A DNA stretch of 20,985 nt from an uncultured virus (IMG/VR IMGVR_UViG_3300010347_001950) (taxonomy: Duplodnaviria; Heunggongvirae; Uroviricota; Caudoviricetes), in IMG/VR virus record IMGVR_UViG_3300010347_001950. One strand, 5' to 3'. Within the stretch, counting starts at the first letter, position 1, and the number at the start of each line of letters is the position of its first letter. The translations under genes and the position numbers were made by a program. Under the pieces are notes generated by a model, which was not told where the DNA came from, did no database searches, and was given only the letters and a program-made list of their open reading frames with translations. Below are positions 1 through 19,209 of this stretch, in pieces.

Positions 1-1017
1 AATAACAGAAATGCAGAACAATATATTGAATTAAAAACAAATTTCGTTGAAGCCACAGACGGAGAAACATTGGCAGTCAATGGGTCTTCTTTCGTAGATT
101 TAATTAAACAGTTTCCAGAAGAAGAAATAGAAATTGTTAGCTCAAGCAAAAAAATGCTTATTGTGAAAAGCAAAAATAAAAAAAGCCGCTTTGCTTTGCC
201 TATTGAAAGCTCGCATAACATAACTAGATTTAAGATTATGGAAGACCCAATTTGTACGATTGCGTGTAATGGCAGTGTGCTTTCAGATGCATTCGCCAAA
301 ACGGCATTTTCGGCATCTGACGACATGGCGTCTGCTCCGCTAACCGCTGTAAGATTGTATATAAGCGGGAGTAAAATGATAGCACAATCTACAGATAATT
401 ATAGAATTAGTGTTTATGAAACAGATATTGATAATTTGGGGCAAACAGCAGAGTTGTTAATCCCAAAAAATACTGCAGAAAGTTTGTCTGTATTATTAAA
501 CAAAATATCAGACGTAATTATATATTGTTATTCAAAATATGTTAAGTTTTGTTGGGATAACACAATTTTTATTTCATTTTTGGAAAACGGAATTGGAAAG
601 CCATTCCCAGATGTCAATAAATTTATTGAATGTCCAGAAAATGCAAAAATTACGATATCCAGGAGTGATTTGTTGAGGGCAATTAAACTGGCGTCTTTGT
701 TCTCGAAAGATTCTTATGTAAATCTTGAAGTAACGGACGAAGGTTTGAATGTTTCTACGTATGATAAAAATCGTGGGGCAAGCCAAGAAGTAATTGTTGC
801 TGATAATATTTTTGGTTCTGCTAACACCGCTGTATCGTGCAAGCATATATTAAAAATTGTTGAAACTATATCTTCGCCATGGATTACAATTTCTTTTGTA
901 GAAATATCATTCGCTAGAGGTTTGTATAGTGCCATTATAATTGATGAAGGTGTATATAAACACCTAATATGTCCGATAATCCCAAACGATAATGAAGATG
1001 AGCAAAATGAATCATGA
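1..1017 (+). CDS. dnaN: DNA polymerase III beta sliding clamp (5'-truncated by window edge)
   Basis: The frame is open from base 1. Beta-clamp-like segments: 'KTAFSASDDMASAPLTAVRL', 'AQSTDNYRIS', 'LLIPKNTAESL', 'GKPFPDVNKFI', 'ISRSDLLRAIKLASLF' and C-terminal 'YKHLICPI'. Directly followed by a holA-like gene. Confidence 0.88.
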   Translation, partial: NNRNAEQYIELKTNFVEATDGETLAVNGSSFVDLIKQFPEEEIEIVSSSKKMLIVKSKNKKSRFALPIESSHNITRFKIMEDPICTIACNGSVLSDAFAKTAFSASDDMASAPLTAVRLYISGSKMIAQSTDNYRISVYETDIDNLGQTAELLIPKNTAESLSVLLNKISDVIIYCYSKYVKFCWDNTIFISFLENGIGKPFPDVNKFIECPENAKITISRSDLLRAIKLASLFSKDSYVNLEVTDEGLNVSTYDKNRGASQEVIVADNIFGSANTAVSCKHILKIVETISSPWITISFVEISFARGLYSAIIIDEGVYKHLICPIIPNDNEDEQNES

Positions 1018-2074
1018 ATCAAGCAGTTGGGATAAATTATATATTATGCGTGGCGATGAATTTTTGTGTAGAATATCCATTGATTCTTTGATTGAGAAAA
1101 ACTCAAATGTACATAGATTTTATAGCGATGATCAAGTAGATGATATATCTAGGTTACTAACAAGTTTTTCGTTAGATTGTAATAATAATGTAGCAATTTT
1201 AATTAATCCTTCTCAACCAGAGATGGATTGTGTATTGAAGATTGTGTCGAAGAATCGTATATCTATAAAATATTTGATTATTTATATGCCCAGTATCGAT
1301 ATCGATAATGATTTGGTTAAAGAATCAAAATTAAAAAATCGAGTATTCGACCACGGTTACATTAATGCAAACGATATAGATAAACTAAGATATTTTATAG
1401 AGCACGTGTGCGCAAAGCAATACAATATCAATATTGGCAAGGATGCTTCTTCGTGGATTGTTTCTCGTGCTCCTACAAATGTAATTAGAATAAATAAATC
1501 AGACAAAGAAGTATTTGATTTAATGCAAATTTCTAATGAGATTAAAAAAATATCTACATTTAAAAAAGATATCAAAATCGACGATGTTAAAAAATATTAT
1601 GTATGTTCGGCAGAATCTGATATTTGGGAATGTATAAACCTAATTATTTCTGGAGATATTAATAAAGCGTATAGTTATTATAATATGTATGTACAACAAA
1701 AAGGCATAATGTCGCTAATTGGTGTTTTATCAAAGCAACTTGGATTGGTTGTTCAAATATATGATTTATATAAACAAGGATTGACAAATCCATACAGCAT
1801 ACAGAAAACACTAGAAGTGAATAATTTTGCCGACAAATATTCGTTTGCTATAGGCGATGATAATTACAAACATAATAATATAAACATCTGGAGAATTAAA
1901 AATATTGTAAATATGATGCACGCATATGATATGAATCAGATTTATAATCAGCTAAATGCAACGATGTGTGCTAATATTGATTTGAGATCTGGTTATAACC
2001 AAAACATTATAGCAGAATATTTGTTTTGTGCTTTAAAAAATGTAGCAAGATATAGCAAAGCATTCATAGATTAG
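992..2074 (+). CDS. holA: DNA polymerase III delta subunit (clamp loader), divergent
   Basis: N-terminal 'LYIMRGDEFL', middle 'DLMQISNEIKKI...IKIDDVKKYY...ESDIWECINLI' and C-terminal 'LIGVLSKQL...IWRIK...IDLRSG' follow the HolA layout, and the length is similar. The true start may be the ATG at 1001 or 1007. Confidence 0.75.
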   Translation: MKMSKMNHESSSWDKLYIMRGDEFLCRISIDSLIEKNSNVHRFYSDDQVDDISRLLTSFSLDCNNNVAILINPSQPEMDCVLKIVSKNRISIKYLIIYMPSIDIDNDLVKESKLKNRVFDHGYINANDIDKLRYFIEHVCAKQYNINIGKDASSWIVSRAPTNVIRINKSDKEVFDLMQISNEIKKISTFKKDIKIDDVKKYYVCSAESDIWECINLIISGDINKAYSYYNMYVQQKGIMSLIGVLSKQLGLVVQIYDLYKQGLTNPYSIQKTLEVNNFADKYSFAIGDDNYKHNNINIWRIKNIVNMMHAYDMNQIYNQLNATMCANIDLRSGYNQNIIAEYLFCALKNVARYSKAFID

Positions 2075-3556: not shown

Positions 3557-5692
3557 ATGAATCGTGCTGGTGCCGCAAGATCCAAAAAAGGCGAAGAAGC
3601 CATGCGGCTTTATAATATTAAAAACGAATGGCTTCGTGAATTAAACCAAGTAATTGAAGAGATTGACGCAAAAACCTCTGCCGAAGAATTAAATGGAATA
3701 TATGAATATACAGTAGAAAATAGATATTCTGTACTTCCTCCGCCAGAACCAGAAAAAAATAAGTATAATCCCGACGGCATTTATGATATATTGACTGTGG
3801 CAGAACATCCGTATTTTTTGGGGCTTACACTAACGCCGTGGCAACGCCTTACATTAAAGATATGTTATATGGGCACACCAGGCAATACTCATCTAAAAAT
3901 AAATGACGAACGTGACGAAACTGGATGCGAACATTGCGTATGGTTGCAGAACAAACTTAAAGAAGAAAATCAAATTAAAGCCATAAAAGCACATTCCCCC
4001 ATAATACCAAAAAGTTATTTGCCGACCGAAAATTCTCCTTGTTTAAAATGTAATAGGTTTGACAAAGAATATATTGATATAAAAAGGCAATATTTGATCA
4101 GCCAAGCGGTTACGCCGCAAATGGAAGAAGATGTAATTAAAAAAATGGACGGAGAAATTCGCGATCGATACTATACAGAACGCGACATGATTAATTATGA
4201 TTTATTCCCAGAAGACAAACCGCAGGTTGAAAGCAAAATAGGAAGGGCATTCCAAGAAATAATTCTTGTGTTCGGCAGAAGAAGCGGAAAGTCATTGATG
4301 ACTTCTGTTATTTCGTTGTATGAAGTGCATAGATTAATAGGAATGGTACATCCACAAAAGAGATTTGGGTTGATGGAATTTGATATTATAAGAATTATCA
4401 ATGTGGCTAATTCTGCCTCACAAGCAAAAGAAGCAATCTTTGACAAAACTAGACCACTTGTCCAAAGCAGTCCGTATTTTTCCAAATATGTTGGCAAGGT
4501 GCCAACGCAAGATGAAATTTTCTTTTTAACACCATATGATATTAAAGAGAATGAACGAAGGCTTACATCTGGAATTGACCCAATACCTGGGACGATTCAA
4601 TTAAGAAGTGGACATTCCGAATCAAGCACCATGCTTGGGCTTACATGTTTCCTTATTATCATAGACGAAATGGCTGCTATGGCCAAAGCTGGAGAAAATT
4701 CTCCAGATGAAACATTATATAATTTGCTTCGTCCATCAATAGCAAATTTTGGCTCTGAAGGGAAAATGATTTGTATATCTAACGCCTTGGGTCCATTTGG
4801 GAAATTTTATGAATTATACGAAGCATCTTTTAGTAATCCGAATATGCTTATGCTTAGACTTCCCACATGGATTGTAAACCCAACTGTCGAGGAATCGTTT
4901 CTAGAGGGAGAAAGAATACATAGCCCAAATATATTTGCATTACAATATGGCTCTGAGTTTGGTTCTGCTGGCACAAGCCCATGGTTAGATCAAGATTTTA
5001 TCATAGAGGCTTTTGAAGCGGGTCGAAACAGGAGTAGATTAGAAAGAGGTATGCCAGGCGTATCTTATTTTTTGCATATGGACCCTGCTTATTCTTCAGA
5101 TTATTATACTTTGGTTATTGTACATTCGGAGCCAACATCTGAAATAGGACCAGACGGGAAAAACTTGAATAAAATTTTTGTAGATCACATCCATTATTTC
5201 GCGCCACAAGGTGCCGGCAAACCCGTTGATATAGATGACGTTGATGAATATATTTTAAAATTAGCACAACGATTTAGATTTGCGTCTTTGACTTATGATC
5301 ATTATTGGGGCAGTATGGCTTCGGTACACAAGATGAAAAGTTATGGGCTTGATGCCCGTTTAATTACTTATGGCGGTGGTGTAAAAGAAAATATTTATGC
5401 TGAATTACAAAATTTATTTATTTCTGGCAGAATTGAATTTTATGGGATTGATACTACTGTGGTTAAAAACGGCAGGGCTATTAACCTTGGCGAGGTTACT
5501 TTGGCCAAAAAGCAATTTATAGGATTGCAAAAAAAGTTTAAAAATAACAGATTTAAAATCGAAGCAATGGTGGGGATGCATGATGATATACCGGATTGTG
5601 TAGCCGGAGCAGCCTACGAGGCCATACACTATAAAACTGTTGGCAAATTGCCAAAAACCGTAACAGCTTATACAGGTGCATTTTTAAAATAA
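3557..5692 (+). CDS. terL: Phage terminase large subunit
   Basis: Adenine-binding 'LTPWQ', Walker A 'LVFGRRSGKS', 'VANSASQAK', Walker B 'IIIDEMA', coupling region 'ICISNA', 'RLPTWIVNP', and RNase H-like nuclease 'HMDPAYSSD...YDHY...HDDIPDCVAG'. Confidence 0.93.
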   Translation: MNRAGAARSKKGEEAMRLYNIKNEWLRELNQVIEEIDAKTSAEELNGIYEYTVENRYSVLPPPEPEKNKYNPDGIYDILTVAEHPYFLGLTLTPWQRLTLKICYMGTPGNTHLKINDERDETGCEHCVWLQNKLKEENQIKAIKAHSPIIPKSYLPTENSPCLKCNRFDKEYIDIKRQYLISQAVTPQMEEDVIKKMDGEIRDRYYTERDMINYDLFPEDKPQVESKIGRAFQEIILVFGRRSGKSLMTSVISLYEVHRLIGMVHPQKRFGLMEFDIIRIINVANSASQAKEAIFDKTRPLVQSSPYFSKYVGKVPTQDEIFFLTPYDIKENERRLTSGIDPIPGTIQLRSGHSESSTMLGLTCFLIIIDEMAAMAKAGENSPDETLYNLLRPSIANFGSEGKMICISNALGPFGKFYELYEASFSNPNMLMLRLPTWIVNPTVEESFLEGERIHSPNIFALQYGSEFGSAGTSPWLDQDFIIEAFEAGRNRSRLERGMPGVSYFLHMDPAYSSDYYTLVIVHSEPTSEIGPDGKNLNKIFVDHIHYFAPQGAGKPVDIDDVDEYILKLAQRFRFASLTYDHYWGSMASVHKMKSYGLDARLITYGGGVKENIYAELQNLFISGRIEFYGIDTTVVKNGRAINLGEVTLAKKQFIGLQKKFKNNRFKIEAMVGMHDDIPDCVAGAAYEAIHYKTVGKLPKTVTAYTGAFLK

Positions 5693-6945: not shown

Positions 6946-7476
6946 ATGGGAAACGAATATTCAAATATCAGTAAAAGTAATACAAGCTCAGAATATGAAA
7001 TAATTAATTTTACGAAAAATTTTGAAGTATTTTCGAAAATTGTGCGAAAATTTGACCCTAATTATGATTATATATTAAAGGAACCATCAGACAAAAAAGC
7101 AGTTATTGATAGAATATCATACAACGATATAAAATATATAAATGCTGCAAACAACAGTATCTTGGTTGATATTAGTACCGAACGTGCCACTGGAATTGCG
7201 CGCGAATTGTCTCCTGGATGGTTGTTAACCAAAGATAATTGTAATAGTGCTTATTATATAGAACAATATATTGAAACATTGAACGATGTATTGCCGTCGA
7301 CATGGCATTGGTTATGGGAACAAGCAATTGGCGCAAATCAGTTGTATTTAGTTTGTCTTTGCCCGCCAGTGGGTTTTTGCCATACTTATATTGCGCTTGC
7401 ATACATTGAATATACTATGCCGACACATTTCGAGATCAATGTATTACCGAGTTGGGCAAAGAATATATTTAAGTAA
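6946..7476 (+). CDS. DUF488-like protein
   Basis: 'RELSPGWLL...YIEQYIETL...LYLVCLCPPVGFCHTYIA' resembles the DUF488 'LAPS...Y...L.C.......CHR' pattern, with R replaced by T. Confidence 0.5.
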   Translation: MGNEYSNISKSNTSSEYEIINFTKNFEVFSKIVRKFDPNYDYILKEPSDKKAVIDRISYNDIKYINAANNSILVDISTERATGIARELSPGWLLTKDNCNSAYYIEQYIETLNDVLPSTWHWLWEQAIGANQLYLVCLCPPVGFCHTYIALAYIEYTMPTHFEINVLPSWAKNIFK

Positions 7477-7493
7477 GGGGAAGGCATATGTAA

Positions 7494-7676
7494 ATGAAAA
7501 ATATTTGTGAAGTAATTGTTCCTACATTAACTATTCTTTCTATTGCCGTATATGTTGTGTATAAATATAAGCACATAGACAAAAAAGACAATTATTGTAA
7601 TTTGTGGTATTTAGATTGTGATGCTTGTAAATCTAGAAATCGTTGCAACAAAATGAGAAAGTTATTGTGTTGGTGA
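7494..7676 (+). CDS. Small membrane-anchored Cys-rich protein
   Basis: Purine-rich RBS. N-terminal TM helix 'VIVPTLTILSIAVYVVY' followed by 'C...CDAC...C'. Confidence 0.55.
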   Translation: MKNICEVIVPTLTILSIAVYVVYKYKHIDKKDNYCNLWYLDCDACKSRNRCNKMRKLLCW

Positions 7677-7779
7677 TTTGAAATTATAATATAATATTAA
7701 ATCCAAGCATTTGTTGGTGGTTGGTAACGTATTATTAAAAAATCAACCAAATTGTGTATAATTACAATGGAGATATTAA

Positions 7780-8547
7780 ATGAGCGATATAATGCCAGTA
7801 AAATTAGTAAGTGATTTTGATGATTTTTATGATTGTCATTTCGATTATTCTGGAAATGCAAAATTGAGTTTTATTAGAATTGGAAAAGATCGCGCCAAGA
7901 TAAAGAAAATGTTTTCAATTCTAAAATCATGCGATGTGCAAATCCCTATGTATGGCAAGGTTAGTAATATAAAAATAAACAAAAATAACGAAGGCAAGGC
8001 GATTATTTGTTGTGACGAATATGGTGACAACAAGACAAAAGTTACATTAGAAGAAGCTTGCGATAAGTATCCTGGGTGTTATTATATGAAATATATAGCT
8101 GGCGACGACACTAAGATATGGAGATATATACAGATAGGTGAGAGATCGTTTCTGATATTGTTTCATACAGATATGCCTTGGTATGAGTGTAAGCAAGATG
8201 ATTATTTTAAATTTGGTTCAGATATGCTTGGGGAGGTATTTGCCAATGGATTAATTGACGGTAAATATCCTTTTGCTCAATTCGGGGCTCTTACAATTTT
8301 GTCTACACAAGCGAATGTATTGTTCGCGGTTGATTTTGTTTCAGATTTGTGTGGTAATTTGTATGTAATTAATTATAATAATGCTCCAAAAATATCTAAT
8401 ATTACACTGTGTGACGAGCTGAGCGATATAGACATCGCAAATTTGATAATCCAAAAAATTAATGACAGGTATATTGTTGAACAAAGATGTAATAATGTTC
8501 AAAGATTAGTAGAGTCTGTATTTGTTGACCAAAACAAATCATTTTAA
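7780..8547 (+). CDS. ATP-grasp-like phage protein (divergent)
   Basis: GGAG RBS and an upstream TATAAT. C-terminal 'FAVDFVSDLCGNLYVINYNNAP' resembles the ATP-grasp 'xVDxxxDxxGxxYVxExNxxP' strand pair; 'MKYI...WRYIQIG' resembles the preceding strands. Confidence 0.45.
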   Translation: MSDIMPVKLVSDFDDFYDCHFDYSGNAKLSFIRIGKDRAKIKKMFSILKSCDVQIPMYGKVSNIKINKNNEGKAIICCDEYGDNKTKVTLEEACDKYPGCYYMKYIAGDDTKIWRYIQIGERSFLILFHTDMPWYECKQDDYFKFGSDMLGEVFANGLIDGKYPFAQFGALTILSTQANVLFAVDFVSDLCGNLYVINYNNAPKISNITLCDELSDIDIANLIIQKINDRYIVEQRCNNVQRLVESVFVDQNKSF

Positions 8548-8587
8548 TATATGTATATATAAACGTATATATTATTAGTAATAATAA

Positions 8588-8599
8588 GTTCTTTGAAAA
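8588..8599 (+). promoter_or_regulatory. boxA-like antitermination element
   Basis: GTTCTTTGAAAA matches the Bacillus-type rrn boxA as I recall it. It lies ~90 nt upstream of a stable RNA gene. Confidence 0.5.
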
Positions 8600-8630
8600 T
8601 TTACAAGTTGTATTTATTCGAATCACGCGT

Positions 8631-8682
8631 GTGGTGTCTAATCAAATTTAGGAAGCTACGTTCTTAAATTTGGTGACATTAT
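8631..8682 (+). other. Long hairpin in tmRNA leader
   Basis: ATCAAATTTAGGAA (8641-8654) pairs with TTCTTAAATTTGGT (8661-8674) using two G-U pairs. It is extended by GTGGTGTC/GACATTAT. Confidence 0.6.
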
Positions 8683-8687
8683 GTAAT

Positions 8688-9122
8688 GGGTGTGACGGGT
8701 ATCGACGTATTGTTGGTGGTTGTTGCTGCATGCCGCAGGTGAGTGCCTGGCTGCGTTACAAAGGCATTCAAACAACAAATGCTAAGAATGAACATTCTAG
8801 CTTTAAGGGATTTACGTTCCTAAAGAGTATTAAGAATAAGCTAATGCCAAATATTAATACCCAAAGTAGATCCCTTGTTATGGTTTAACAACAAATTAAA
8901 CCACGTTGTACTATTCTCTCTTGCCAGGAATAGATACAGCGTAACCGATGGCAAGTATACACTGTAGCGACGAATCTAGCGATTAGTGGCGAAAGCAAAA
9001 GATTCTAGGATAGATTTTGTTTGATGCTTGCGTAAATCTATCTGATTATAAAAGTAGCATCTAAGCATGTAGACGCGACAACGAAAACAGTGCGGACGGG
9101 AGTTCGACTCTCCCCACATCCA
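8688..9122 (+). ncRNA. ssrA: tmRNA (transfer-messenger RNA), one-piece
   Basis: Acceptor stem GGGTGTG/CACATCC with G3:U alanine identity pair and discriminator A. 5' 'GG...TCGAC'. T-arm GGGAG-TTCGACT-CTCCC (9098-9114). Helix 2: CGTATTGTT/AACAGTGCG, GTTGTTGC/GCGACAAC, TGCATGC/GCATGTA. pk1: CGCAG/CTGCG + TGAGTGCCT/AGGCATTCA. pk2: ACGTTGTA/TACAGCGT + CTTGCCA/TGGCAAG. pk3: CACTG/TAGTG + GAATCT/AGATTC. pk4: GATAGATTT/AAATCTATC + GATGCT/AGCATC. CCA is not encoded (followed by CGA). Confidence 0.96.
8781..8888 (+). other. tmRNA tag reading frame: (A)AKNEHSSFKGFTFLKSIKNKLMPNINTQSRSLVMV*
   Basis: Resume codon GCT after 'AACAAAT', ~10 nt downstream of pk1. The TAA stop sits in the helix-5 hairpin TGGTTTAA/TTAAACCA just before pk2. 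Confidence 0.85.
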
Positions 9123-9163
9123 CGAAATATTAATAAATTATAATTATAAGGAGATAACACATT

Positions 9164-9592
9164 ATGCCTAAGGAAGTTAAACGAACAGAGACAGCAGATG
9201 ATGAAAAAGTAAATTATGTGTCTCGTATACAACAATATGCGCACAATGGCAATATTGACGTAGAAGAATTGTCAAAAGATATTTCTGTTGATAGGTTTGA
9301 TGTCGAAGAATCTGAATACGAAGTGAAGTGTGATACCATGCCTGAATATTTGGAAGTTAGTGCGCAAGAAGGTACTAACTATCAGTATGCCAAAAACGCA
9401 GATACATTGATGAAATTGAGATTGCTGTTTAAAAAAGCCAAAGATTATAAGGAATTACAAGATAGCATTCGGTCAGATATCGTTTGTTGCAAAGATACAT
9501 TGGGCGAATCTGAATTTAATAAGATGTTAGATATATATAGCAGAGGATATGATAAAGTAATATTGGATGTGATTAGAATTTTGAGCACATAA
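9164..9592 (+). CDS. Hypothetical protein
   Basis: AAGGAG RBS; 142-aa acidic/helical ORF; no recognised motif. Confidence 0.7.
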   Translation: MPKEVKRTETADDEKVNYVSRIQQYAHNGNIDVEELSKDISVDRFDVEESEYEVKCDTMPEYLEVSAQEGTNYQYAKNADTLMKLRLLFKKAKDYKELQDSIRSDIVCCKDTLGESEFNKMLDIYSRGYDKVILDVIRILST

Positions 9593-9643
9593 ACATATTT
9601 AATATTGTGTAGTAAAGCCCAGGAGGTTGAACAAAAGCAGACA

Positions 9644-9838
9644 ATGATTGAAGATAACAAAGTGCGCAAAATAACAATTGAATTTGACGACTATATCGAT
9701 GTGTTGGAAAAAGAAGATGCTAAAGCATGGTATGAGATGTTGCAAAAATTAACCATTGTTGGTTGGTCTCATGGTATAGATATGGGACCATTCAACTGGG
9801 AAAGGACAAAAAAGAGTGCAGAACAACAAGCTAAATAA
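9644..9838 (+). CDS. Small hypothetical protein
   Basis: Fills the gap in a co-directional run. ATG 9644 was chosen over TTG 9605; the start is uncertain. Confidence 0.55.
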   Translation: MIEDNKVRKITIEFDDYIDVLEKEDAKAWYEMLQKLTIVGWSHGIDMGPFNWERTKKSAEQQAK

Positions 9839-10202
9839 CCAGGATACTATTAGTGCCTTGGCTGACCTTCAGTCTATAGAGATGGATACTGAAAAAATCG
9901 AAAGCGATTTATCATATGCTTTTAGTATAGATAAACCATATAAATATTTAAGTGAGGACAGTAACATTTTTATTGATGAAGTAATGAAGCGGTTTGACCA
10001 ATTTAATATTATTAGAAACGAAAATGTGTTTGATTGTGTGCTGTCTAGGAAGCTTTCGCAAACGCAAAATGTTGTTGCCGCAATTGTATCTACAGGCAGG
10101 GGGATGACATGGCAACAAGCTCTTGCTGATGGTGTGTTGAATTATTCAGATTATAATGCTAGAATTAATGAGCTTTCTGAACAGAACAACAAACCAAAAT
10201 AA
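9816..10202 (+). CDS. Hypothetical protein, possibly phage ABA-sandwich-like
   Basis: 'YLSEDSNIFIDEVMKRF...FDCVL...GRGMTWQQALADGVL' parallels the layout of 10882..11298, but only weakly. Confidence 0.5.
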   Translation: MQNNKLNNQDTISALADLQSIEMDTEKIESDLSYAFSIDKPYKYLSEDSNIFIDEVMKRFDQFNIIRNENVFDCVLSRKLSQTQNVVAAIVSTGRGMTWQQALADGVLNYSDYNARINELSEQNNKPK

Positions 10203-10242
10203 TAATTTTCGCACATTTAAAATTTTAAAAAAAGGAGAAAAC

Positions 10243-10869
10243 ATGACACAGGTCAAAACATTATGTGCCGTGTTTGTTTTGGCAGCATCATTACCGCTAT
10301 TTGCGCCTCGCCAAACAAAAAACACAAAAATGTTAGATCAAAATAACATAACAAAAACACATATTCAAAACAAAAATTTATTGTATACCCAAGAAAAAGA
10401 AAAAATAGAAAAATTTATTATTACAATTAAGCCAGGAAATGACAAATTTGCGAAGTCGGTTTCTTCGTATATAATAGAAAGTGCGCAGAAAAACAATATA
10501 CATCCATATATCATTGCCACTACTGGGTATGTAGAAAGTGAATTTGATATGAATTCGCGACCATGCATAGGAATTATGCAGGTGTTATCAAATAAACCTC
10601 GCGATGGTTTGAACCCGCACAATATAAAAGATAATATAGAGCTTGGTAGTAGAGAACTATCTTATCATTATCATCACCGCAAAGCTCTTGCTAGTAGGGG
10701 TGGCGACTACAGGTTGCGATATATGTGGGGGAGATATAACGGATGTGGTGTGTCTACAAGGAATACATATATTAAAAGAGTTATGATTGTTCATAATCGA
10801 TTGAGATATGAAACCCCATCACAATGGGAAAATAGATTAAAAAAACAGCACACATTGTGGAAGAACTAA
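10243..10869 (+). CDS. Lytic transglycosylase (SLT domain) with N-terminal signal/anchor
   Basis: AAGGAG RBS before ATG 10243. Hydrophobic N-terminus 'TLCAVFVLAASLPLFA'. SLT motifs 'YVESEF' (catalytic Glu), 'GIMQV', 'NPHNIKDNIELG', 'RYNG' and 'YIKRV'. Confidence 0.82.
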   Translation: MTQVKTLCAVFVLAASLPLFAPRQTKNTKMLDQNNITKTHIQNKNLLYTQEKEKIEKFIITIKPGNDKFAKSVSSYIIESAQKNNIHPYIIATTGYVESEFDMNSRPCIGIMQVLSNKPRDGLNPHNIKDNIELGSRELSYHYHHRKALASRGGDYRLRYMWGRYNGCGVSTRNTYIKRVMIVHNRLRYETPSQWENRLKKQHTLWKN

Positions 10870-10881
10870 TGGAAAAAGGAT

Positions 10882-11298
10882 TTGTATATGAATACAAAAT
10901 ATATAAGTGATTATCGCCAAGACATTAGCGAAGAAAAATATAATGAATTAAGAATAATTGATGCAAAATTATACGAACTGTTGTATAGAAAATGTGATAA
11001 TCCTGACGGGTATTATGGGTATACTGGATATGGTATGCCAGAAGATGAACCTTCTGTATGGATTAATCGCGTACCACATTATTCCACCGAATTGTCAGAA
11101 ACGATTAATTTAATGAAACAGCTAAACAATAATGAACATATTTATTTACGACGCAGTAATAATATGTGGTATGTGACAATTAAAAAATCACAAAAAAGCA
11201 AAGATAACACGTGTGTTGCCGCAGGGAATACTGTTTCGGAGGCGTTTTGCCGATGCATGTTAGAGTTCACCACACGTCAACGCAATAATACAGAGTAA
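10882..11298 (+). CDS. Phage ABA sandwich domain protein
   Basis: 'VPHYSTELSETINLMKQL...WYVTI...GNTVSEAFCRCML' matches the 'P.YST....A..V...L ... T...AIC.A.L' signature. The start is probably ATG 10888. Confidence 0.6.
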   Translation: MYMNTKYISDYRQDISEEKYNELRIIDAKLYELLYRKCDNPDGYYGYTGYGMPEDEPSVWINRVPHYSTELSETINLMKQLNNNEHIYLRRSNNMWYVTIKKSQKSKDNTCVAAGNTVSEAFCRCMLEFTTRQRNNTE

Positions 11299-11360
11299 TT
11301 AAAGGATACCAAAAAGCGCTAGTAATTCACAAACATAGCGCTTTTTGGTATAAAAAGACA

Positions 11361-12005
11361 ATGGAATTGGAACATATTATAAATTCGTATTGTAAAAACC
11401 ACGCCATCAATGTACATTCTATAATCAATGATTCGTTTATAAATGGGCCTGGTAAAAGAATTGTTGTATGGTTTCATGGATGCCCTTTCCACTGCAGTGG
11501 ATGTTTTAATCCACAAATGTGGGATTTTGAAAACAAAACAATAATTTCGGTCAAAGAATTGGCGCAAATAATTAATCAATACGATGGTGATGGGGTTACA
11601 TTCAGCGGTGGAGAGCCAATGATACAGGCTCCTAGTTTTTTGGAATTATTGCTATTAATTGAGCAGAGAAATTTTAAAAAGGGGATTATATGTTTCACTG
11701 GGTGCGAAAGTGAAGAAATAAATAGCACAAGTATAATAAAAGAATGTATTGATCATATTGATTTGTCGATTATAGGAAGATATGACAAAAATCAATTAAG
11801 AAAAAATTATATAGGGGGCAGTTCAAACCAACAATTTGTTTTTCTAAACAAAAAAGGAAGAGGAAGAGATAAAATTAGTGAAGACGAGATATTAATAGAC
11901 AACGACATTGAGATCCATTACTCCGGAGACAACATGTGTATTACAGGTTATCCAAATATAAACAAAGAAAAATTAATACAATTGGGTATTACAATACTGG
12001 AGTAA
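11361..12005 (+). CDS. nrdG: Radical SAM activase, NrdG-like (anaerobic ribonucleotide reductase activating protein family)
   Basis: 'NGPGKRIVVWFHGCPFHCSGCFNP' (CxxxCxxC), 'GVTFSGGEP', 'FTG', 'GRY' and 'GSSNQ'. Confidence 0.82.
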   Translation: MELEHIINSYCKNHAINVHSIINDSFINGPGKRIVVWFHGCPFHCSGCFNPQMWDFENKTIISVKELAQIINQYDGDGVTFSGGEPMIQAPSFLELLLLIEQRNFKKGIICFTGCESEEINSTSIIKECIDHIDLSIIGRYDKNQLRKNYIGGSSNQQFVFLNKKGRGRDKISEDEILIDNDIEIHYSGDNMCITGYPNINKEKLIQLGITILE

Positions 12006-12008
12006 TGA

Positions 12009-13340
12009 ATGAGTGTAATGAATCATATATATTTGATTGATTATATGGATAGCCGTGGTATGCACTACGAGGCTGATATAGCCACCGATTTGTTAATTAA
12101 AACAGCCCAAGGCAATGTTGTAACGCCAAATCTCCCAGCTGCTGTTTCTACTAACCCTGGCAAGTCTATTCCTCCCAATGTTTTGAATTCTATTTATAAA
12201 TACGTACGCAATCTTATTTCAAACAAACAATATATACAACAATTCTACCCAAAGTTCAAAAGCATGTTGGCGAAACAAATACCCAAAAAACAAGGCAAAG
12301 TGTCATGGATTGGCAAAGCGTACATGGTATTCAAAGGAGGTATGGTACTATTTATAGCCAGGCAGATTTCTATAGATATAGCAACATTGTACAAAAATAT
12401 GGGGAGGAAAGATATAACAGCCGCTGATATTGTTAAACCAATAGCAGACATTCTTTCGTTTTTTAGTTGGCCAATATTTCTTACTCTAATTGCAGTAGAA
12501 ATGCCTTGGGTACAAGATTTAGCGAAAGAACTTGGATATATATCAACTGGTACTAATTCTTACGAAGTAGAGACGGGGCAATCAAGTAAGGAGTCTGCAA
12601 ATTCTCAAGCGGCAAGAGATAAATACGGAAGCTTTATTGATGTATATCAGAAATGTATTGGTGCATATAATGATTACGAGCAGGAAAAAAGTTTGGTATT
12701 AAGCGCAATTGAGAATTCAGCTTTGCCAGATGATTTCAAAACTATTTTTATGAGTATATTGCAATCGGATGGTAACAATAATAAAGACAAAGATATACCG
12801 AGCAAAGAATTTATTTCTGCCTTTGATCGCGCATACTATACAGTATCTCGCAGATTCCCATATATTAGAAGACAAGTTACAGAAATGTTTAATAATGCAT
12901 GGCGAAGCAATAATTATGATGCGAACAAAGCATATTCTATTGCTGGCAAATATGTGATGAATAATCCAAATTATACACAAAGCGAGAAAAAAGAAGCTTA
13001 TTATGTATTGTATGACCTGCTTAACAGAAGGTCGGCGTTGGCGGAGCAACTGAAAACACAAAAATACCAAGATATTTTCTCAAACAAGCCAGAAACTGGT
13101 GCTTTTATTGAAAGACAAAACGAATTCAAAACCTATTACACTAAATACTCAAACGAACTCGCCAATAGATTGAAACAAGCTGGTTTTGCAAACCCATACC
13201 ATCCGCCAACTGATGAAAAAGAAAAATCCAGATATAATACGATAAGGTCACAAATAGTATCTGATATTATAAAGAAAATATCTAATTCTGGTGTGCATAC
13301 GCCAGAATTTATTTCGTGGATGCAACGCAACTTTAAATAA
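12009..13340 (+). CDS. Hypothetical protein with N-terminal 'D...H..D....LLIKTAQ' leader and two hydrophobic segments
   Basis: 443-aa ORF with GGAG RBS. The leader is shared with 18578..19102. Hydrophobic stretches 'AYMVFKGGMVLFIA' and 'ILSFFSWPIFLTLIAV'. Confidence 0.75.
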   Translation: MSVMNHIYLIDYMDSRGMHYEADIATDLLIKTAQGNVVTPNLPAAVSTNPGKSIPPNVLNSIYKYVRNLISNKQYIQQFYPKFKSMLAKQIPKKQGKVSWIGKAYMVFKGGMVLFIARQISIDIATLYKNMGRKDITAADIVKPIADILSFFSWPIFLTLIAVEMPWVQDLAKELGYISTGTNSYEVETGQSSKESANSQAARDKYGSFIDVYQKCIGAYNDYEQEKSLVLSAIENSALPDDFKTIFMSILQSDGNNNKDKDIPSKEFISAFDRAYYTVSRRFPYIRRQVTEMFNNAWRSNNYDANKAYSIAGKYVMNNPNYTQSEKKEAYYVLYDLLNRRSALAEQLKTQKYQDIFSNKPETGAFIERQNEFKTYYTKYSNELANRLKQAGFANPYHPPTDEKEKSRYNTIRSQIVSDIIKKISNSGVHTPEFISWMQRNFK

Positions 13341-13391
13341 TTACAATATGTGATTATTTCATCATGTTTTAAGCACATTAATGTATACAAA

Positions 13392-13424
13392 CGCAAGCTT
13401 GGCTGCTGCACGCCAAGCGAAGCG
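13392..13424 (+). promoter_or_regulatory. GC-rich stem-loop between the 443-aa gene and the sigma factor gene
   Basis: GCTTGGC (13397-13403) / GCCAAGC (13412-13418) with an outer CGC/GCG. No good U-tract. Confidence 0.4.
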
Positions 13425-13451
13425 AATTGATTTAATTAAAAGGAGCAATAT

Positions 13452-14258
13452 ATGAATTCTAAAAACGAAATTAATAACGGGTTGTGTTATAAATCAAAAT
13501 ACAAGAAAAGCGAATTGTATCGATTCTCGCAAATGGACGACAGAGAGCTGTTGTTTTACTATAGAAATGTAGATAGCGAAGATGAAAAAGACAAGGCCTT
13601 GGATGAGTTATATAATAGACATATAAAAATGCTGTCTCTTATTGCTTCTAATATAGCTAGGTTAAATTCATCTGTAGGTACAATAGAAGATTTTTTACAA
13701 AGCGCTAAATTGGCTGCGCTGGAAGCATATAATAATTTTGATTTTGAAGAAGAGCATCATGCCAAATTGTCCACGTATTTATACTCATGTGTATATTATT
13801 CTTTACTAAATATATGTAGCGAAGAATGGTTTATACATTGCCCGCGATATAAACAGCAAATTAAATTATATTTAATGGGGGCATACAACAGATCGCCGGA
13901 GAAAAAGAGACAGATAGAAGAAAAATATAAAACTAAAGAAAACGGTACAGAAATTGATTTGTATGAAGAAAACAAAATGTTATTAAACAAAAATATTTGT
14001 TTGTTTACAGATATTAATGAAGAATATGATGCACAAGACATGGATAATATGTTCTTGCCAATAATAATTAATGATATAAAATCAAAATTGCCAGAAGAAA
14101 AACAAGTTATTTTTAATATGTTTTTTGTCAATCGATATGGCGCGAACGAAATTTCAAAATATTTAAACATACCCATAAATAATATAAGAAGAGATATACG
14201 TTATATACGCAATTATTTTAAAAGAACTATTCCTGATTATATTAACAGTCAAAAATAG
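13452..14258 (+). CDS. Sigma70-family RNA polymerase sigma factor (alternative/phage type)
   Basis: AAGGAG RBS. Region 2 'ALDELYNRHIKML...IEDFLQSAKLAALEAYNNFD...AKLSTYLYSCVYYSL'; region 4 'KLPEEKQVIFNMFF...GANEISKYLNIPINNIRR'. Confidence 0.85.
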   Translation: MNSKNEINNGLCYKSKYKKSELYRFSQMDDRELLFYYRNVDSEDEKDKALDELYNRHIKMLSLIASNIARLNSSVGTIEDFLQSAKLAALEAYNNFDFEEEHHAKLSTYLYSCVYYSLLNICSEEWFIHCPRYKQQIKLYLMGAYNRSPEKKRQIEEKYKTKENGTEIDLYEENKMLLNKNICLFTDINEEYDAQDMDNMFLPIIINDIKSKLPEEKQVIFNMFFVNRYGANEISKYLNIPINNIRRDIRYIRNYFKRTIPDYINSQK

Positions 14259-14281
14259 ATATTTGTATTGAGGAATCAATA

Positions 14282-14479
14282 ATGCAATATTGTTTTAATT
14301 GCCGTAAGGAATATGGTTTCCCTATGGGCAAATATATCGAAAAACGAATATGCGACATGTGCGGGGAAGAACACCAATGCTTTATCGTACTTTCGCAATT
14401 TGTTTTTCCTCCGAAATATTCATCGAATCCTTTGGCGCTAGAATTGTACGAAAAAGCCAAGAATAGAGAAAATAATTAA
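14282..14479 (+). CDS. Small zinc-finger protein
   Basis: GAGG RBS; 'YCFNC...ICDMC...C'. Confidence 0.65.
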   Translation: MQYCFNCRKEYGFPMGKYIEKRICDMCGEEHQCFIVLSQFVFPPKYSSNPLALELYEKAKNRENN

Positions 14480-14520
14480 CACAACGCCCGTGGTTTTAAA
14501 CCACGGGCGTTGTGTTAATT
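14474..14520. terminator. Perfect 23-bp-arm palindrome between convergent genes; probable bidirectional terminator
   Basis: AATTAACACAACGCCCGTGGTTT-T-AAACCACGGGCGTTGTGTTAATT. Confidence 0.75.
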
Positions 14521-14531
14521 TGGCAATGCGT

Positions 14532-14942
14532 TCATTTTATTTCAACTGGAATTTTCTTAGGTTCTTCTTTTGTTTGTGTTTTTGGAATAGTAAGTTCTAA
14601 AATCCCATTTGTATACGTGGCCTTAATTTGTTCTGGGTCAATACCATCTGTTTGGAACGAGTAGTAATATTGTGAGGTTTTTGATCGCTTATTGTTTTCT
14701 TCTTTTGTTTCTCCAGTAACAGTAATTACATTGTCTTTTACTTCCACATTTATATTTTCTGCCGCAATACCTGGCATTGGCATTGTGACCACATTGTTGC
14801 CATCTACCTCTTTGATTTCCATACCCCCCCTATACCAATCTGCGTCATCAAAGCGATTGAACATTTTAAACAGGCTCGGCACAAATGTGTCTAACAACAT
14901 TGGGGCGCGATATGGGTCAAACAATGATAGGGCATTTTGCAT
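14532..14942 (-). CDS. Small heat-shock protein (Hsp20/alpha-crystallin family)
   Basis: AAGGAGG RBS; 'MPMPGIAAENINVEVKDNVITVTGE', 'IKATYTNGILELTIPK', C-terminal IxI/V motif 'KKIPV'. Confidence 0.93.
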   Translation of the reverse strand: MQNALSLFDPYRAPMLLDTFVPSLFKMFNRFDDADWYRGGMEIKEVDGNNVVTMPMPGIAAENINVEVKDNVITVTGETKEENNKRSKTSQYYYSFQTDGIDPEQIKATYTNGILELTIPKTQTKEEPKKIPVEIK

Positions 14943-15001
14943 TTTATTTTATACCTCCTTACTTAGTTTATTTCACATTATTAGACTCATGTTACATACT
15001 A

Positions 15002-15032
15002 ATAGTAACATTTTTTGCTCAAATGTTACTAT
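15002..15032. promoter_or_regulatory. Inverted repeat, operator-like, in divergent hsp20/AAA intergenic region
   Basis: ATAGTAACATTT-N7-AAATGTTACTAT (perfect 12-bp arms). Extra ATGTTAC copies at 14989 and 15141. Confidence 0.5.
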
Positions 15033-15209
15033 GTTTTGGAAATTTTTTTAATTTTTTTATAATGTGTTTGTTGGGTACTATTAATTTGAATATGATGGAT
15101 TAAATAATCAACATTGAATTATGAATAATTTCATCATAATATGTTACGTGATATGTATATAAAGTGCAAAGATTGCAGCATATATCAACAAAGGAGCGTA
15201 CATTATTAA

Positions 15210-16655
15210 ATGAATAAATCACCGGTACTACTACAAGAAGTAATAGATTTTTGGATTTCAAATAATCTAAATGTATTGTTGGTTGGCAAAGCTGGTGTTG
15301 GCAAGACTGCTTTGGTAAAATCAGCGTTTGAAAGAGCTGGCATTAAAGCAAGATACTTTTCGTCTTCTACTATGGATCCTTGGGTAGATTTTATTGGTGT
15401 TCCTCGCGTTGTAGAAGAAAACCAGAACAAATATCTAGAGTTGATACGCCCAAAAGAATTTGCGGAGGATGAAGTTGAAGCTTTGTTTTTTGATGAGTTC
15501 AATCGTGCGCCGAAAAAAGTAAGGAATGCTGTAATGGAATTGATTCAGTTTAAGTCGGTTAACGGGAAGAAATTTAAGAATCTCAGAATGGTATGGGCCG
15601 CAATCAATCCATATGATACAGAAGACGAAGGCAGCGCATATGATGTAGAACCGCTTGATCCTGCGCAGATTGATAGATTCCATGTACAATATGAGGTTCC
15701 GTACAGACCGTCTTATGATTTTTTCAAAACAAAATATGGCGAAAAAATATCCAAAGGTGTAATTGAGTGGTGGGAAAGTTTGCCCCAGAAAGCAAAAAAT
15801 AATGTTAGCCCGAGAAGACTTGAATATGCAATTGATATGTATATAATGGGCGGCAATGTACAACATGTGTTGCCGCTATCTATTAACGCGGTATCGTTGG
15901 TGAATATATTACAAAATGGTTCAGTGGTTGATCAAATGTATGAATTGTATAAATCGAAAAACAAAGAAGGCGCTACTAAATTTATCAAGAACGATAATAA
16001 TTATTTTGCATGTATCGATAGTATTATAAATAATAATAATCTTTTAAAATTTTACCTTGATATAATGCCTAAAGAAAAAATAGCATTTTTGGTAAGCAAA
16101 CATGACAACATATGTAATATGGTATGTTCTGAAGCCAAAGAAAAGAAGATATTTGAAGAGGTTATTACTAATTTGATATCTATAAATAATAAAAATTCAG
16201 AAAGAATTAGGTCTATATGTGGGCAAGTGAACAGAAAGCTTCTTCAGGATATAGATAGTAAATGCGGGTACGATCTGCTTACAGACAATTTACAAATAAG
16301 AAATTTGGCTGAATATTTTGATGAACAATATTTGGATACAACAAAAAGAATTTCGATATTTAATGAATATATGGAATCTATTATTAAACAGCCTGCATTA
16401 ACTATACAAGAGGCAGAGCGAGCGTTGTTTGTTCTTAATGCATTTGTGCGCCACACTCACGAAGGCACATTAGCCACACGCCTTCCGCTTTTAAAGCAAT
16501 TTGTTGAAAATGTGTTTAATACAATTATTTCATTACGGAAAATTGCGTCGTGGTATGATTTTACTATGCTGTATCCATATAAACAACTATATAATAAGCT
16601 TTTTGTTAAAACAAACGCAAAGCTTCGTTTCAATATTAATCTACAACTTCCTTAA
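15210..16655 (+). CDS. MoxR/AAA_5-type AAA+ ATPase with C-terminal helical extension
   Basis: Walker A 'GKAGVGKT', 'DFIGVP', Walker B 'LFFDEFNRA', 'VWAAINP', Arg finger 'LDPAQIDRF', sensor 2 'SPRRL'. Confidence 0.9.
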   Translation: MNKSPVLLQEVIDFWISNNLNVLLVGKAGVGKTALVKSAFERAGIKARYFSSSTMDPWVDFIGVPRVVEENQNKYLELIRPKEFAEDEVEALFFDEFNRAPKKVRNAVMELIQFKSVNGKKFKNLRMVWAAINPYDTEDEGSAYDVEPLDPAQIDRFHVQYEVPYRPSYDFFKTKYGEKISKGVIEWWESLPQKAKNNVSPRRLEYAIDMYIMGGNVQHVLPLSINAVSLVNILQNGSVVDQMYELYKSKNKEGATKFIKNDNNYFACIDSIINNNNLLKFYLDIMPKEKIAFLVSKHDNICNMVCSEAKEKKIFEEVITNLISINNKNSERIRSICGQVNRKLLQDIDSKCGYDLLTDNLQIRNLAEYFDEQYLDTTKRISIFNEYMESIIKQPALTIQEAERALFVLNAFVRHTHEGTLATRLPLLKQFVENVFNTIISLRKIASWYDFTMLYPYKQLYNKLFVKTNAKLRFNINLQLP

Positions 16656-16671
16656 TATAATATAGGGCAAA

Positions 16672-17904
16672 ATGGAAACACAATTAAGTAGAGACGAGTT
16701 TATACAAATTTCCCAAAAATTACAACAATACTATTCTGTTTTTTATGCTCTTTGGGAAAATGGCAAGATTGTTTTTGACAATAATATAAAAACCGCGTCT
16801 GTAGCCGAAGATTATGATGGTGATGGTATTAGTTTTTTGTTTAATAAACAATTTTGGGATTCTTTAGACGAATACAATAGACTATTTGTTATTTGCCACG
16901 AAATGTTACATATTGTTTTGTTCCATTGTCGAAGAATGTGCGAATTGAATCACGAAATAGCGAATATAGCGGTAGATATTGTAACCAACCATATGCTTGT
17001 GTCTATATATGGGTTTGACCGAGAAAAGATACAAAATTGGGAACAATATTGTTGGGTTGATACAGTTTTTAAAGACAATCCGCTATCTCCAAATTATAAT
17101 TTTGAGTATTACTATTTGATTTTATCAAATCAAGATATATCAGAATTATCTTCTGTTTCTGGTGTAGATGAACACAACTATTCATTTGATGTGCCGAGAT
17201 ATATGCGCGAACATATAAATGAATTTTCTGATGATATAATTTCTCAAATACAAGACATTGTGGACAACGAACCATACAACAATACAGGCTGTGTTAACAA
17301 GGGTAATACTCCAGAAGGAATATGGAAAGATATCGTTATAAAAAACAATAATAAAAAACAAAAATGGGAAACAATTATCAATAAATTCGCGGCAAAAATA
17401 TATATGAATTCTGATTTGTACGAAACACAGTGGGCATACGTGAACAGAAGATTCACAAACATTCCTGCGGATATTATTTTGCCATATGATTATTATTATG
17501 ATGACAAAGATCGCCGTATAGATTTGTGGTTTTTTATAGATGCTTCTGGGTCGTGTTCAATTCATAATGATAGATTTTTTAATGTTGTTAGAAGTGTTCC
17601 GTATGAAAAATTCAAAACAAGGTTGTTTTCTTTTGATACAGAGGTATATGAACTAGATATTACCAAGCCACGCATAAGAGGCGGCGGCGGCACATCGTTT
17701 AGTTGTATTGAAAAGTATATACAAAAAGAAATTGAATTTAAAAAGGTAAAGTATCCGTCGGCTGTATTTTTAATAACAGATGGGTATGGCGATATATTAA
17801 ATGCCCAATACCCGTATAGATGGTGTATTTTACTAACTCCAAATGGAGATACAAAATGTTTTAGTAAGAAATCTCATATATATAAGTTGAGTGATTTTGA
17901 ATAA
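16672..17904 (+). CDS. HExxH metallopeptidase-like + vWA domain protein (DUF2201-type partner of MoxR ATPase)
   Basis: 'VICHEMLHI...NIAVDIVTN' zincin-like motif. C-terminal MIDAS 'FIDASGS', 'FDTEV', 'GGGGTSF', 'LITDGYG'. Confidence 0.88.
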   Translation: METQLSRDEFIQISQKLQQYYSVFYALWENGKIVFDNNIKTASVAEDYDGDGISFLFNKQFWDSLDEYNRLFVICHEMLHIVLFHCRRMCELNHEIANIAVDIVTNHMLVSIYGFDREKIQNWEQYCWVDTVFKDNPLSPNYNFEYYYLILSNQDISELSSVSGVDEHNYSFDVPRYMREHINEFSDDIISQIQDIVDNEPYNNTGCVNKGNTPEGIWKDIVIKNNNKKQKWETIINKFAAKIYMNSDLYETQWAYVNRRFTNIPADIILPYDYYYDDKDRRIDLWFFIDASGSCSIHNDRFFNVVRSVPYEKFKTRLFSFDTEVYELDITKPRIRGGGGTSFSCIEKYIQKEIEFKKVKYPSAVFLITDGYGDILNAQYPYRWCILLTPNGDTKCFSKKSHIYKLSDFE

Positions 17905-17960
17905 TAGGCGCTGTGGAATGATATATAGAAATAACCAATATTGCTTGTTGGGAGAATTTT

Positions 17961-18581
17961 ATGACACACCCGAGAGACGTACTACAGCCGCTATTGGATT
18001 CTATATTCCAATGCAGATATTATAAAAAAATAGTGCAGTTTAAAAATTTATATTCATTGGTGAGATATCCAATTGACTTATGGCAAATTATTGAAATTAC
18101 CAAATCAGAACCAGAGGCAACTGTGGGATTAACAATTCAGTATTATAAACAATACGATATTGCAGAAAGAGATACACTTAGAGTGCCTGATTATATAGAA
18201 TATGCAGAACTTTGGGGTAAAAATGGAATCATATATGTAACGAATAGGGGAGATTCTCCAAGAACAGTAGAAGTTCCAAGCATGGCATATGACAGCATAC
18301 CAGATAGCGCAATCGCAGACGTAGTATCTTCTGTGTTTGATGTATATTTCCGTGTTAGGTGGGATTTTGATCCAAATCACTGCTATGCGTTGGTAAATTT
18401 CTGGGATGATACAATTGATGTATCCAGGTATAGTTTAGATTATCAAACGCACGAAACTGCATTAAATATATTATATTATAAACAACAAAACAAAGCCGAA
18501 AGGGCGCTGTTCGGCATACCTCCTGAGCAAAGATTGGCGGAATTGTGGGTGGATGGTAAAAAGGTTGAAACTAATCGTTAG
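17961..18581 (+). CDS. Hypothetical protein made of two internal repeats
   Basis: GGAG RBS. 'LTIQYYKQYDIAERDTLRVPDYIEYAELW' vs 'LNILYYKQQNKAERALFGIPPEQRLAELW'. Confidence 0.75.
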   Translation: MTHPRDVLQPLLDSIFQCRYYKKIVQFKNLYSLVRYPIDLWQIIEITKSEPEATVGLTIQYYKQYDIAERDTLRVPDYIEYAELWGKNGIIYVTNRGDSPRTVEVPSMAYDSIPDSAIADVVSSVFDVYFRVRWDFDPNHCYALVNFWDDTIDVSRYSLDYQTHETALNILYYKQQNKAERALFGIPPEQRLAELWVDGKKVETNR

Positions 18582-19102: not shown

Positions 19103-19140
19103 GCTTAATAGTTATATAATATAATACAATATTCCTATGC

Positions 19141-19170
19141 CTACTACTCCTCCAATTGTTGGGGTAGTAG
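19141..19170. other. Stem-loop between two minus-strand genes
   Basis: CTACTACTCC / GGGGTAGTAG arms. No clear U-tract on the minus strand. Confidence 0.35.
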
Positions 19171-19209
19171 TTAACAACCGATATATATTATAAATAATAG
19201 AATTTAGTA

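Follow-up and report, generated by a model that had tools for sequence, protein, structure and literature searches.

We show herein that positions 8688-9122 of the window, by which is meant the whole 20,985-nucleotide stretch of DNA that was analyzed, are a real phage tmRNA gene, and that the extra length of its tag is due to one discrete hairpin lying in frame, a point that was absent from the preliminary description of this DNA. The reading that we hold to be the probable one is that of a working, phage-borne, one-piece tmRNA, acquired by one lineage of huge sludge or digester phage, in which a tag of 11 codons has been split by the in-frame hairpin and in which ribosome rescue is the main benefit.

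The gene was recognized through a match of plus-strand positions 8688-9125 to the Rfam tmRNA family RF00023, which covers positions 1-374 of the model with 127.3 bits (gathering score, 47; E = 7e-50). RF00023 is the sole Rfam family above threshold in the window. Pairing by coordinates revealed all the elements of a tRNA-like domain, that is, a 7-bp acceptor stem with a G3.U pair, a T-arm and a discriminator A (Table 1). G3.U is an identity element for alanyl-tRNA synthetase (AlaRS). The bases after A9122 are CGA, and the 3' CCA is therefore not encoded in the gene; in many tRNA genes CCA is added post-transcriptionally, and its absence is still compatible with function. The Rfam score is moderate, and the sequence around the D-loop is atypical.

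The 435-nt RNA folds at -134.6 kcal/mol (z = -4.68), a value that was equaled in none of 100 shuffles. All four pseudoknots were found. In PK1, PK2 and PK4 both stems are fully paired, while PK3, judged by single-sequence pairing, is weaker. Thus, the earlier claim of a fully foldable tmRNA on phage DNA was borne out, both by the end-to-end match to RF00023 and by coordinate pairing. Infernal and ARAGORN had been named in the preliminary description as the means of confirming the boundaries and the resume codon; the Rfam model supports both, but ARAGORN is silent, for a reason that is given below. The RNA is most likely functional in ribosome rescue.

Table 1. Features of the tmRNA gene and of its surroundings, in window coordinates
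Feature	Position	Strand	Details
DnaN	1-1017		Pfam/PHROG annotation
Pol III delta	992-2074		Pfam/PHROG annotation
Terminase large subunit (TerL)	3557-5692	+	phrog_2, E 2e-19; 711 aa; marks phage context
Upstream ORF	7780-8547	+	255 aa; no Pfam/PHROG family; unmatched in 81 related phage loci
tmRNA gene	8688-9122	+	Predicted mature RNA of 435 nt; Rfam match extends to 9125
Acceptor stem, 5' strand	8688-8694	+	Pairs with 9115-9121, 7/7, including G3.U; discriminator A9122
Helix 2, 5' strand	8706-8726 (8706-8714 and 8719-8726)	+	Pairs with 9075-9082 and 9086-9094; runs of 9 and 8 pairs in the minimum-energy fold; Rfam structure line
Pseudoknot 1 (PK1)	8734-8768	+	Stem a 8734-8738/8751-8755, 5/5; stem b 8742-8748/8762-8768, 7/7; interleaved
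Tag reading frame	8781-8885	+	35 codons, the first (GCU 8781-8783) being the resume codon; translation and Rfam resume-position alignment
In-frame hairpin insert	8805-8876	+	72 nt, 24 codons; outer stem 8805-8815/8866-8876, 11/11; inner stem 8827-8833/8854-8860, 7/7
Helix 5	8882-8902 (8882-8888/8896-8902)	+	7/7 paired; tag stop UAA 8886-8888 in 5' strand
Pseudoknot 2 (PK2)	8903-8955	+	Hairpin 8903-8942; loop 8920-8926 pairs with 8949-8955, 7/7
Pseudoknot 3 (PK3)	8967-9005	+	Weakest; small hairpin 8967-8990; 8972-8977 pairs with 9000-9005, 6/6; short first stem; low Rfam posterior
Pseudoknot 4 (PK4)	9008-9061	+	Stem a 9008-9017/9034-9043, 10/10; stem b 9023-9028/9056-9061, 6/6
T-arm	9098-9114	+	GGGAG/CUCCC, 7-nt T-loop, 5/5 paired
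Downstream ORF	9164-9592	+	142 aa; acidic; no family; not SmpB-like
Radical-SAM activase like NrdG (anaerobic ribonucleotide reductase small subunit)	11361-12005	+	phrog_626
Sigma factor	13452-14258		Pfam/PHROG annotation
AAA ATPase	15210-16655	+	MoxR-like matches; followed by DUF2201_N gene
DUF2201_N putative metallopeptidase domain protein	16672-17904	+	Labeled 'HNH endonuclease' in PHROGs (phrog_1314)
PcfJ-like domain with five DUF4116 repeats	19210-20874	-	554 aa

Translation of 8781-8888 gives AKNEHSSFKGFTFLKSIKNKLMPNINTQSRSLVMV, followed by UAA, that is, 35 residues ending in SLVMV, exactly as had been described. The GCU resume codon at 8781 is located 12 nt 3' of PK1 and falls on the Rfam consensus resume position with a high posterior. 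The mRNA-like domain, to which the extra length had rightly been assigned, thus has an Ala resume codon between PK1 and PK2 and a UAA at 8886-8888 in helix 5, the place where the stop codons of tmRNAs are usually found. Of the other two frames, one runs at once into a stop and the other encodes 13 residues without AA at the end; no short -AA tag is therefore hidden in another frame, and the 35-codon reading is not refuted on this count. The tag is neither short nor provided with an -AA degron, for it has 35 residues and a -VMV end, its final residue being hydrophobic and not Ala. A hydrophobic final residue is usual for tmRNA tags, according to the part of PMC4131195 that was available. The inserted peptide is basic (6 K/R vs 1 D/E), and no amphipathic signal was detected in the tag, the hydrophobic moment of which was matched by 3010 of 5000 shuffles.

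The tag frame is also open in the 5' direction, from a TTG at 8670, so as to form an ORF of 72 aa (8670-8888) that lies over the 5' half of the tmRNA and could be misannotated as a protein by gene callers. Its product has no relative in a collection of 5.8 billion protein clusters. Open frames are not rare in this stretch, since 111 nt on the 5' side of the resume codon are likewise without a stop in the tag frame.

The element that lengthens the tag occupies 8805-8876. It begins 24 nt past the resume codon and takes up codons 9 to 32 in full, from first base to last; were it removed, a tag of ordinary length would be left, with 8 codons from before the hairpin and 3 from after it, 11 in all. 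Its outer stem has 11 pairs by coordinates and 12 in the minimum-energy fold. Folded alone, the 72 nt reach -19.8 kcal/mol (z = -4.57), and only 1 of 200 shuffles equaled this value. The same segment is handled as an insertion in the Rfam alignment, and when seven bacterial tmRNAs were aligned to the gene with MAFFT, all seven had a gap at this place, with the resume codons lined up. No stop occurs across the insert in the tag frame, as compared with two and four stops in the other frames. Among mononucleotide shuffles of the insert, 12.8% are open in a given frame; together with a factor of 1/3 for length, this gives a chance of about 0.04 (roughly 1 in 25, a post hoc estimate) that an insert would be both in frame and free of stops.

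These features point to an RNA-level element that was forced to stay in frame, and not to a designed long peptide. Because the RNA structure is strong and the peptide carries no signal, it is the hairpin, rather than the peptide, that is more likely to have been selected or tolerated. The possibility that it is a mobile or otherwise known element was considered and rejected. No Rfam family fits it, the best E values (0.42 to 9) being far under the cut-offs. In the window, four matches with up to 2 mismatches were found vs 1.8 expected, two of them being its own arms, and a search of IMG/VR with its stems returned a single match, to an unrelated chance palindrome.

The hairpin also accounts for the silence of ARAGORN. 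The program reported no tRNA or tmRNA in the window, either by default or with thresholds relaxed to 80%, and gave only spurious calls at 70%. When the 72 nt were deleted in silico, a tmRNA with the same ends was called. Thus, it is the insert that hides the gene from ARAGORN. The call made on the hairpin-less sequence names a different frame, of 11 codons, at 8989-9024, which is situated within PK3/PK4 and not between PK1 and PK2. This frame is taken as a heuristic artefact, yet it still counts against certainty about the tag frame.

A near-identical and near-complete copy of the stretch was recovered from five runs, one from each of five studies of activated sludge, anaerobic digester or biogas material, with dates between 2016 and 2025; some of these runs might be the source sample. 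In the four runs compared with the window, the sole difference was a SNP at 8545, outside the tmRNA; in one of the five runs (X5), the tmRNA itself is free of changes. The one metatranscriptome run contributed two contigs (8738-8888 and 8967-9117, 151 nt each, with a depth of about 4), both of which fall within the tmRNA; the first of these spans the entire hairpin, unspliced and without a joint. Since metatranscriptome libraries can contain DNA, the contigs hint no more than weakly at a stable RNA in which the insert is retained. Two low-depth DNA runs also cover the flanks of the tmRNA.

With genes for TerL, DnaN, pol III delta and a sigma factor, the window resembles part of a large, huge-phage-like phage. 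Synteny with TerL-related phages covers DnaN through the gene that follows TerL. Of the ORFs from there to the end of the window (6946-20874), none could be matched by tblastn in 81 TerL-related loci; the tmRNA accordingly sits in a lineage-specific stretch. The boundary between core and accessory regions is sharp and lies just after 6871. Around the tmRNA gene, promoter-like sites were no commoner than in shuffles (7 vs 5.4), and no plus-strand terminator was found after it.

No smpB gene accompanies the tmRNA in the window, as the preliminary description had noted, for none of the 24 window ORFs matches PF01668. Among the five ORFs near the tmRNA, which include both flanking ones, no SmpB was found at E values of up to 10. 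The idea that SmpB is encoded next door was likewise rejected, the downstream 142-aa ORF being without any SmpB signal.

Several other genes of the window deserve mention. The NrdG-like gene is followed by a 443-aa ORF without a family (12009-13340, plus strand), and no NrdD-like match was found in the window. The AAA ATPase and the DUF2201 protein (15210-17904) form a conserved phage pair with no assigned role. The PcfJ/DUF4116 gene is on the strand opposite to that of nearly all the other window genes.

For TerL, about 90 relatives were found at 38-50% identity, the closest being P0002, P0004 and P0005 at about 50%. In a profile scan of IMG/VR, a relative was encoded by 196 stretches, and identity was 38-47% for the best 80 of these; no related phage was found by a single-protein scan. 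From the CheckV completeness of the TerL-related IMG/VR records, genomes of about 360 kb are to be expected. Many terminases of this clade (P0004, P0013, P0022, P0036, P0038 and others) are about 1040-1120 aa long and contain intein/homing-endonuclease domains (PF14528), of which the window TerL has none. A tmRNA above the cut-off was present in none of 49 TerL-related whole records (drawn from the best 80 of the 196), among them records of 316, 261 and 169 kb, and in none of the 81 TerL-related loci was there a match by nhmmer or ARAGORN. Nor was a tmRNA found in the 485-kb uncultured phage that is the best GenBank match for TerL. The lineage-specific nature of the region (81 loci) and the absence of the tmRNA from the 49 related records together suggest that the gene is a recent accessory acquisition.

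Searches with the tmRNA itself gave a similar picture. By blastn, no relative was found among 50,697 phage records. In IMG/VR, an exact 32-mer of the 3' end retrieved no relative; a 21-mer of the T-arm retrieved 55 loci, in which the likeness is confined to the 3' tRNA-like end; a degenerate 5' pattern retrieved 24 loci, none of them a tmRNA; and a 15-mer of the helix 2 region retrieved 20 loci with five tmRNAs, none of which is related. In JGI metagenomes, a 25-mer matched only the source contig (about 144 kb, 100% identical). The GTDB genomes had no match for a 25-mer and at least 120 loci for the T-arm 21-mer, and the best full-length nhmmer score among the matches listed was 32 bits, for a Sphaerochaetaceae tmRNA. 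When 401 Spirochaetota genomes were searched by BLAST, 14 of the 16 hits were to the 3' tRNA-like end, the other two being internal and short (about 50 and 27 nt).

The likeness to these Sphaerochaetaceae/Spirochaetales tmRNAs (L189 and L157) extends to the resume codons, which align, and to the start of the tag, which is AKKE in theirs and AKNE here. Their tags, however, have 14-17 residues and an -ALAA end, unlike the window tag, and the overall similarity is weak. For L157, from a Spirochaetales MAG, ARAGORN calls a tmRNA of 430 nt; NN is present in it and its 5' end is duplicated, and this length probably stems from faulty assembly and not from a truly long tmRNA. In a broader comparison, the window tmRNA shares with canonical bacterial SsrA (RF00023) the G3.U tRNA-like domain, helix 2, PK1, a GCN resume codon about 12 nt after PK1, a stop in helix 5, and PK2-PK4. 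It differs in having a 72-nt in-frame hairpin and a 35-residue -VMV tag, in lacking an encoded CCA, in being on a phage, and in being invisible to ARAGORN.

Phage tmRNAs as such have been published before. The available part of PMC4131195 reports them for phage G and the Bxz1 group, and that of PMC7162821 (Al-Shayeb et al.) notes the occurrence of tmRNA and SmpB in huge phages. As in phage G, the mycobacteriophage Bxz1 group and the huge phages, the tmRNA gene of the window is complete and belongs to a large phage, as far as the accessible parts of these sources go (PMC4131195, PMC7162821, PMC12484599). The published phage tmRNAs, in contrast, were detected by ARAGORN or with the pipeline of the tmRNA Website, and their tags are short where the accessible text gives them, for example 13 residues in Bacillus phage G (PMC12484599, in part); none of them matches the window tmRNA by blastn among the 50,697 records. 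The Melnitz-like/pelagimyophage two-piece tmRNAs resemble the present case in that an extra structured RNA element resides within a phage tmRNA gene, namely a glutamine riboswitch in the Melnitz-like phages (PMC9004378, in part). Those genes, however, are circularly permuted and carry a known riboswitch class, according to the same excerpts, whereas the window gene is in one piece, with a hairpin that lies in the tag frame and belongs to no Rfam family.

Long tags had been described as known mainly from Mollicutes. This does not hold for phages, in which 7 of 30 distinct complete tags from IMG/VR have at least 20 residues, vs 1 of 44 distinct bacterial tags, in samples that are small, chosen by sequence pattern and called by ARAGORN. 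Long tags, of 23-32 residues, occur in L009, L011, L040, L041, L050, L307 and L313. Because 7 of the 30 sampled phage tags are this long, tag length alone is unexceptional for a phage; it is the Val end, together with the discrete in-frame hairpin, that sets the window tmRNA apart. All of the 30 phage tags end in Ala, as do 42 of the 44 bacterial ones. The long-tag tmRNAs (for example, L009, L040, L050, L307 and L313, with 24-32 residues) are thus phage-borne like the window tmRNA but differ from it in their Ala ends. By nhmmer, they match the window tmRNA at the 3' tRNA-like end only, and the window tag does not align with the five long phage tags that were compared. In a MAFFT alignment, it stands apart from the VN(T/Q) group (L009, L011, L017 and L040), with no shared tag core. 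The tags of that group, which start with VN(T/Q) or AN, have a hydrophobic core in common and look like a family of long tags. In two permuted phage tmRNAs, L040 and L041, the tag regions are strongly structured (z = -4.8 and -3.1 vs shuffles), and hairpins inside long tag frames may therefore not be unique to the window. A full-text literature search turned up no publication that deals with long tags in phage tmRNAs.

It had been suggested, in view of the -SLVMV end, that tagged proteins could evade ClpXP. Nonetheless, ssrA variants ending in -AAV and -ASV are degraded, though more slowly than -LVA, and degradation is lost in Salmonella without ClpXP, according to the accessible text of PMC11003136. 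Since these variants, which are other than -VMV, are ClpXP substrates in that account, a terminal Val alone does not spare a protein from ClpXP. The -VMV end would be a weak or altered degron at best. The further suggestions of the preliminary description, that the phage RNA competes for SmpB, sends rescued products to other proteases and counters host defences, are conjectural.

The probable reading, that of a working tmRNA with a split tag, would imply the following course of events. From what is known of tmRNA biology, the RNA would be cut from a longer transcript and receive its CCA from a host enzyme. It could then be charged by the host AlaRS via the G3.U pair and, together with SmpB, either that of the host or a phage copy beyond the window, enter stalled ribosomes. 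Translation would resume at GCU 8781 and end at the UAA in helix 5. Because the hairpin is exactly in frame and without a stop, the rescued chains would acquire 35 residues with a hydrophobic -LVMV end. The benefit to the phage would probably be extra ribosome-rescue capacity during infection.

Three other explanations were weighed against this one. It is rather unlikely, though well worth considering, that the tmRNA serves rescue only and that the content of its tag is neutral; the hairpin would then have come in as an insertion, perhaps of a small palindromic element, and been tolerated because it was by luck in frame and stop-free, and neither the peptide nor its -VMV end would have a role. 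Tagging-defective tmRNA variants still support the growth of some phages and bacteria, which is compatible with such a view, and the tag peptide, as seen above, is devoid of any signal (3010 of 5000 shuffles). That the insert is a discrete, self-complementary unit that is absent from the seven aligned bacterial tmRNAs would also be expected, as would the recent acquisition suggested by the lineage-specific region and the 49 related records without a tmRNA. However, an inserted element of this sort bears no sign of mobility, since the hairpin is not repeated in the window and its stems have a lone, unrelated match in IMG/VR, and the sequence has remained unchanged in runs from 2016 to 2025.

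It appears improbable that the hairpin is a functional RNA module, such as a regulator or sensor, a site for protein binding, or a segment that is bypassed or excised, which gates the translation of the tag or is skipped in it, and that the effective tag is 8 + 3 residues or conditional. In ordinary tmRNAs, helix 5 starts about 24 nt after the resume codon, and this is the distance at which the hairpin begins; moreover, the hairpin runs from codon boundary to codon boundary over 24 codons and is strongly structured. The glutamine riboswitch in the tmRNA genes of Melnitz-like phages would be a precedent (PMC9004378, in part). On the other hand, no Rfam family fits the hairpin, the contig from the RNA library crosses the insert without a joint, and there are neither matched take-off and landing codons nor a stop after the take-off site. 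We give correspondingly little credence to the more specific notion that the hairpin acts as a switch, or as an element binding a ligand or protein, that sets how far the tag is read, with a short tag as opposed to one of 35 residues, or rescue with as opposed to without tagging, as the outcomes between which the phage could change during infection.

Finally, that the RNA is a decoy, which would bind SmpB or ribosomes without tagging and so block the trans-translation of the host, or else a decaying copy, is very improbable, for although its Rfam score is moderate, its D-loop region atypical (a pattern on the D-loop found no tmRNAs in 24 IMG/VR matches), its CCA unencoded and its ARAGORN result negative, and although a tmRNA of phage DS6A that consists of the TLD only has been proposed to titrate SmpB (PMC4131195, in part), all of the helices are intact, the frame is open to the stop in helix 5, run X5 is unchanged inside the tmRNA, and an intact mRNA-like domain with four pseudoknots would be needless for a decoy.

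Phage tmRNAs have been listed in genome papers, but to our knowledge almost nothing is known of their roles. In the small sample compared here, long tags were far commoner on phages than on bacteria (7 of 30 vs 1 of 44). ARAGORN has reported tmRNAs in 402 of 18,146 phage genomes (PMC9004378, in part); because the program misses the window gene owing to the insert, ARAGORN-based counts of phage tmRNAs, as in published surveys, are lower bounds and biased against long or interrupted tags. The window gene indicates that a complete structured RNA element can be accommodated in a tag frame with the frame and the stop preserved, and since both were kept despite the inserted element, it is suggested that the tag is read through. 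If the hairpin did prove to be a switch, doubtful as this is, it would represent a new way to regulate trans-translation from within the tmRNA itself. Constructs with and without the hairpin would form a natural pair, which could reveal how the length of a tag and a hairpin inside it affect trans-translation.
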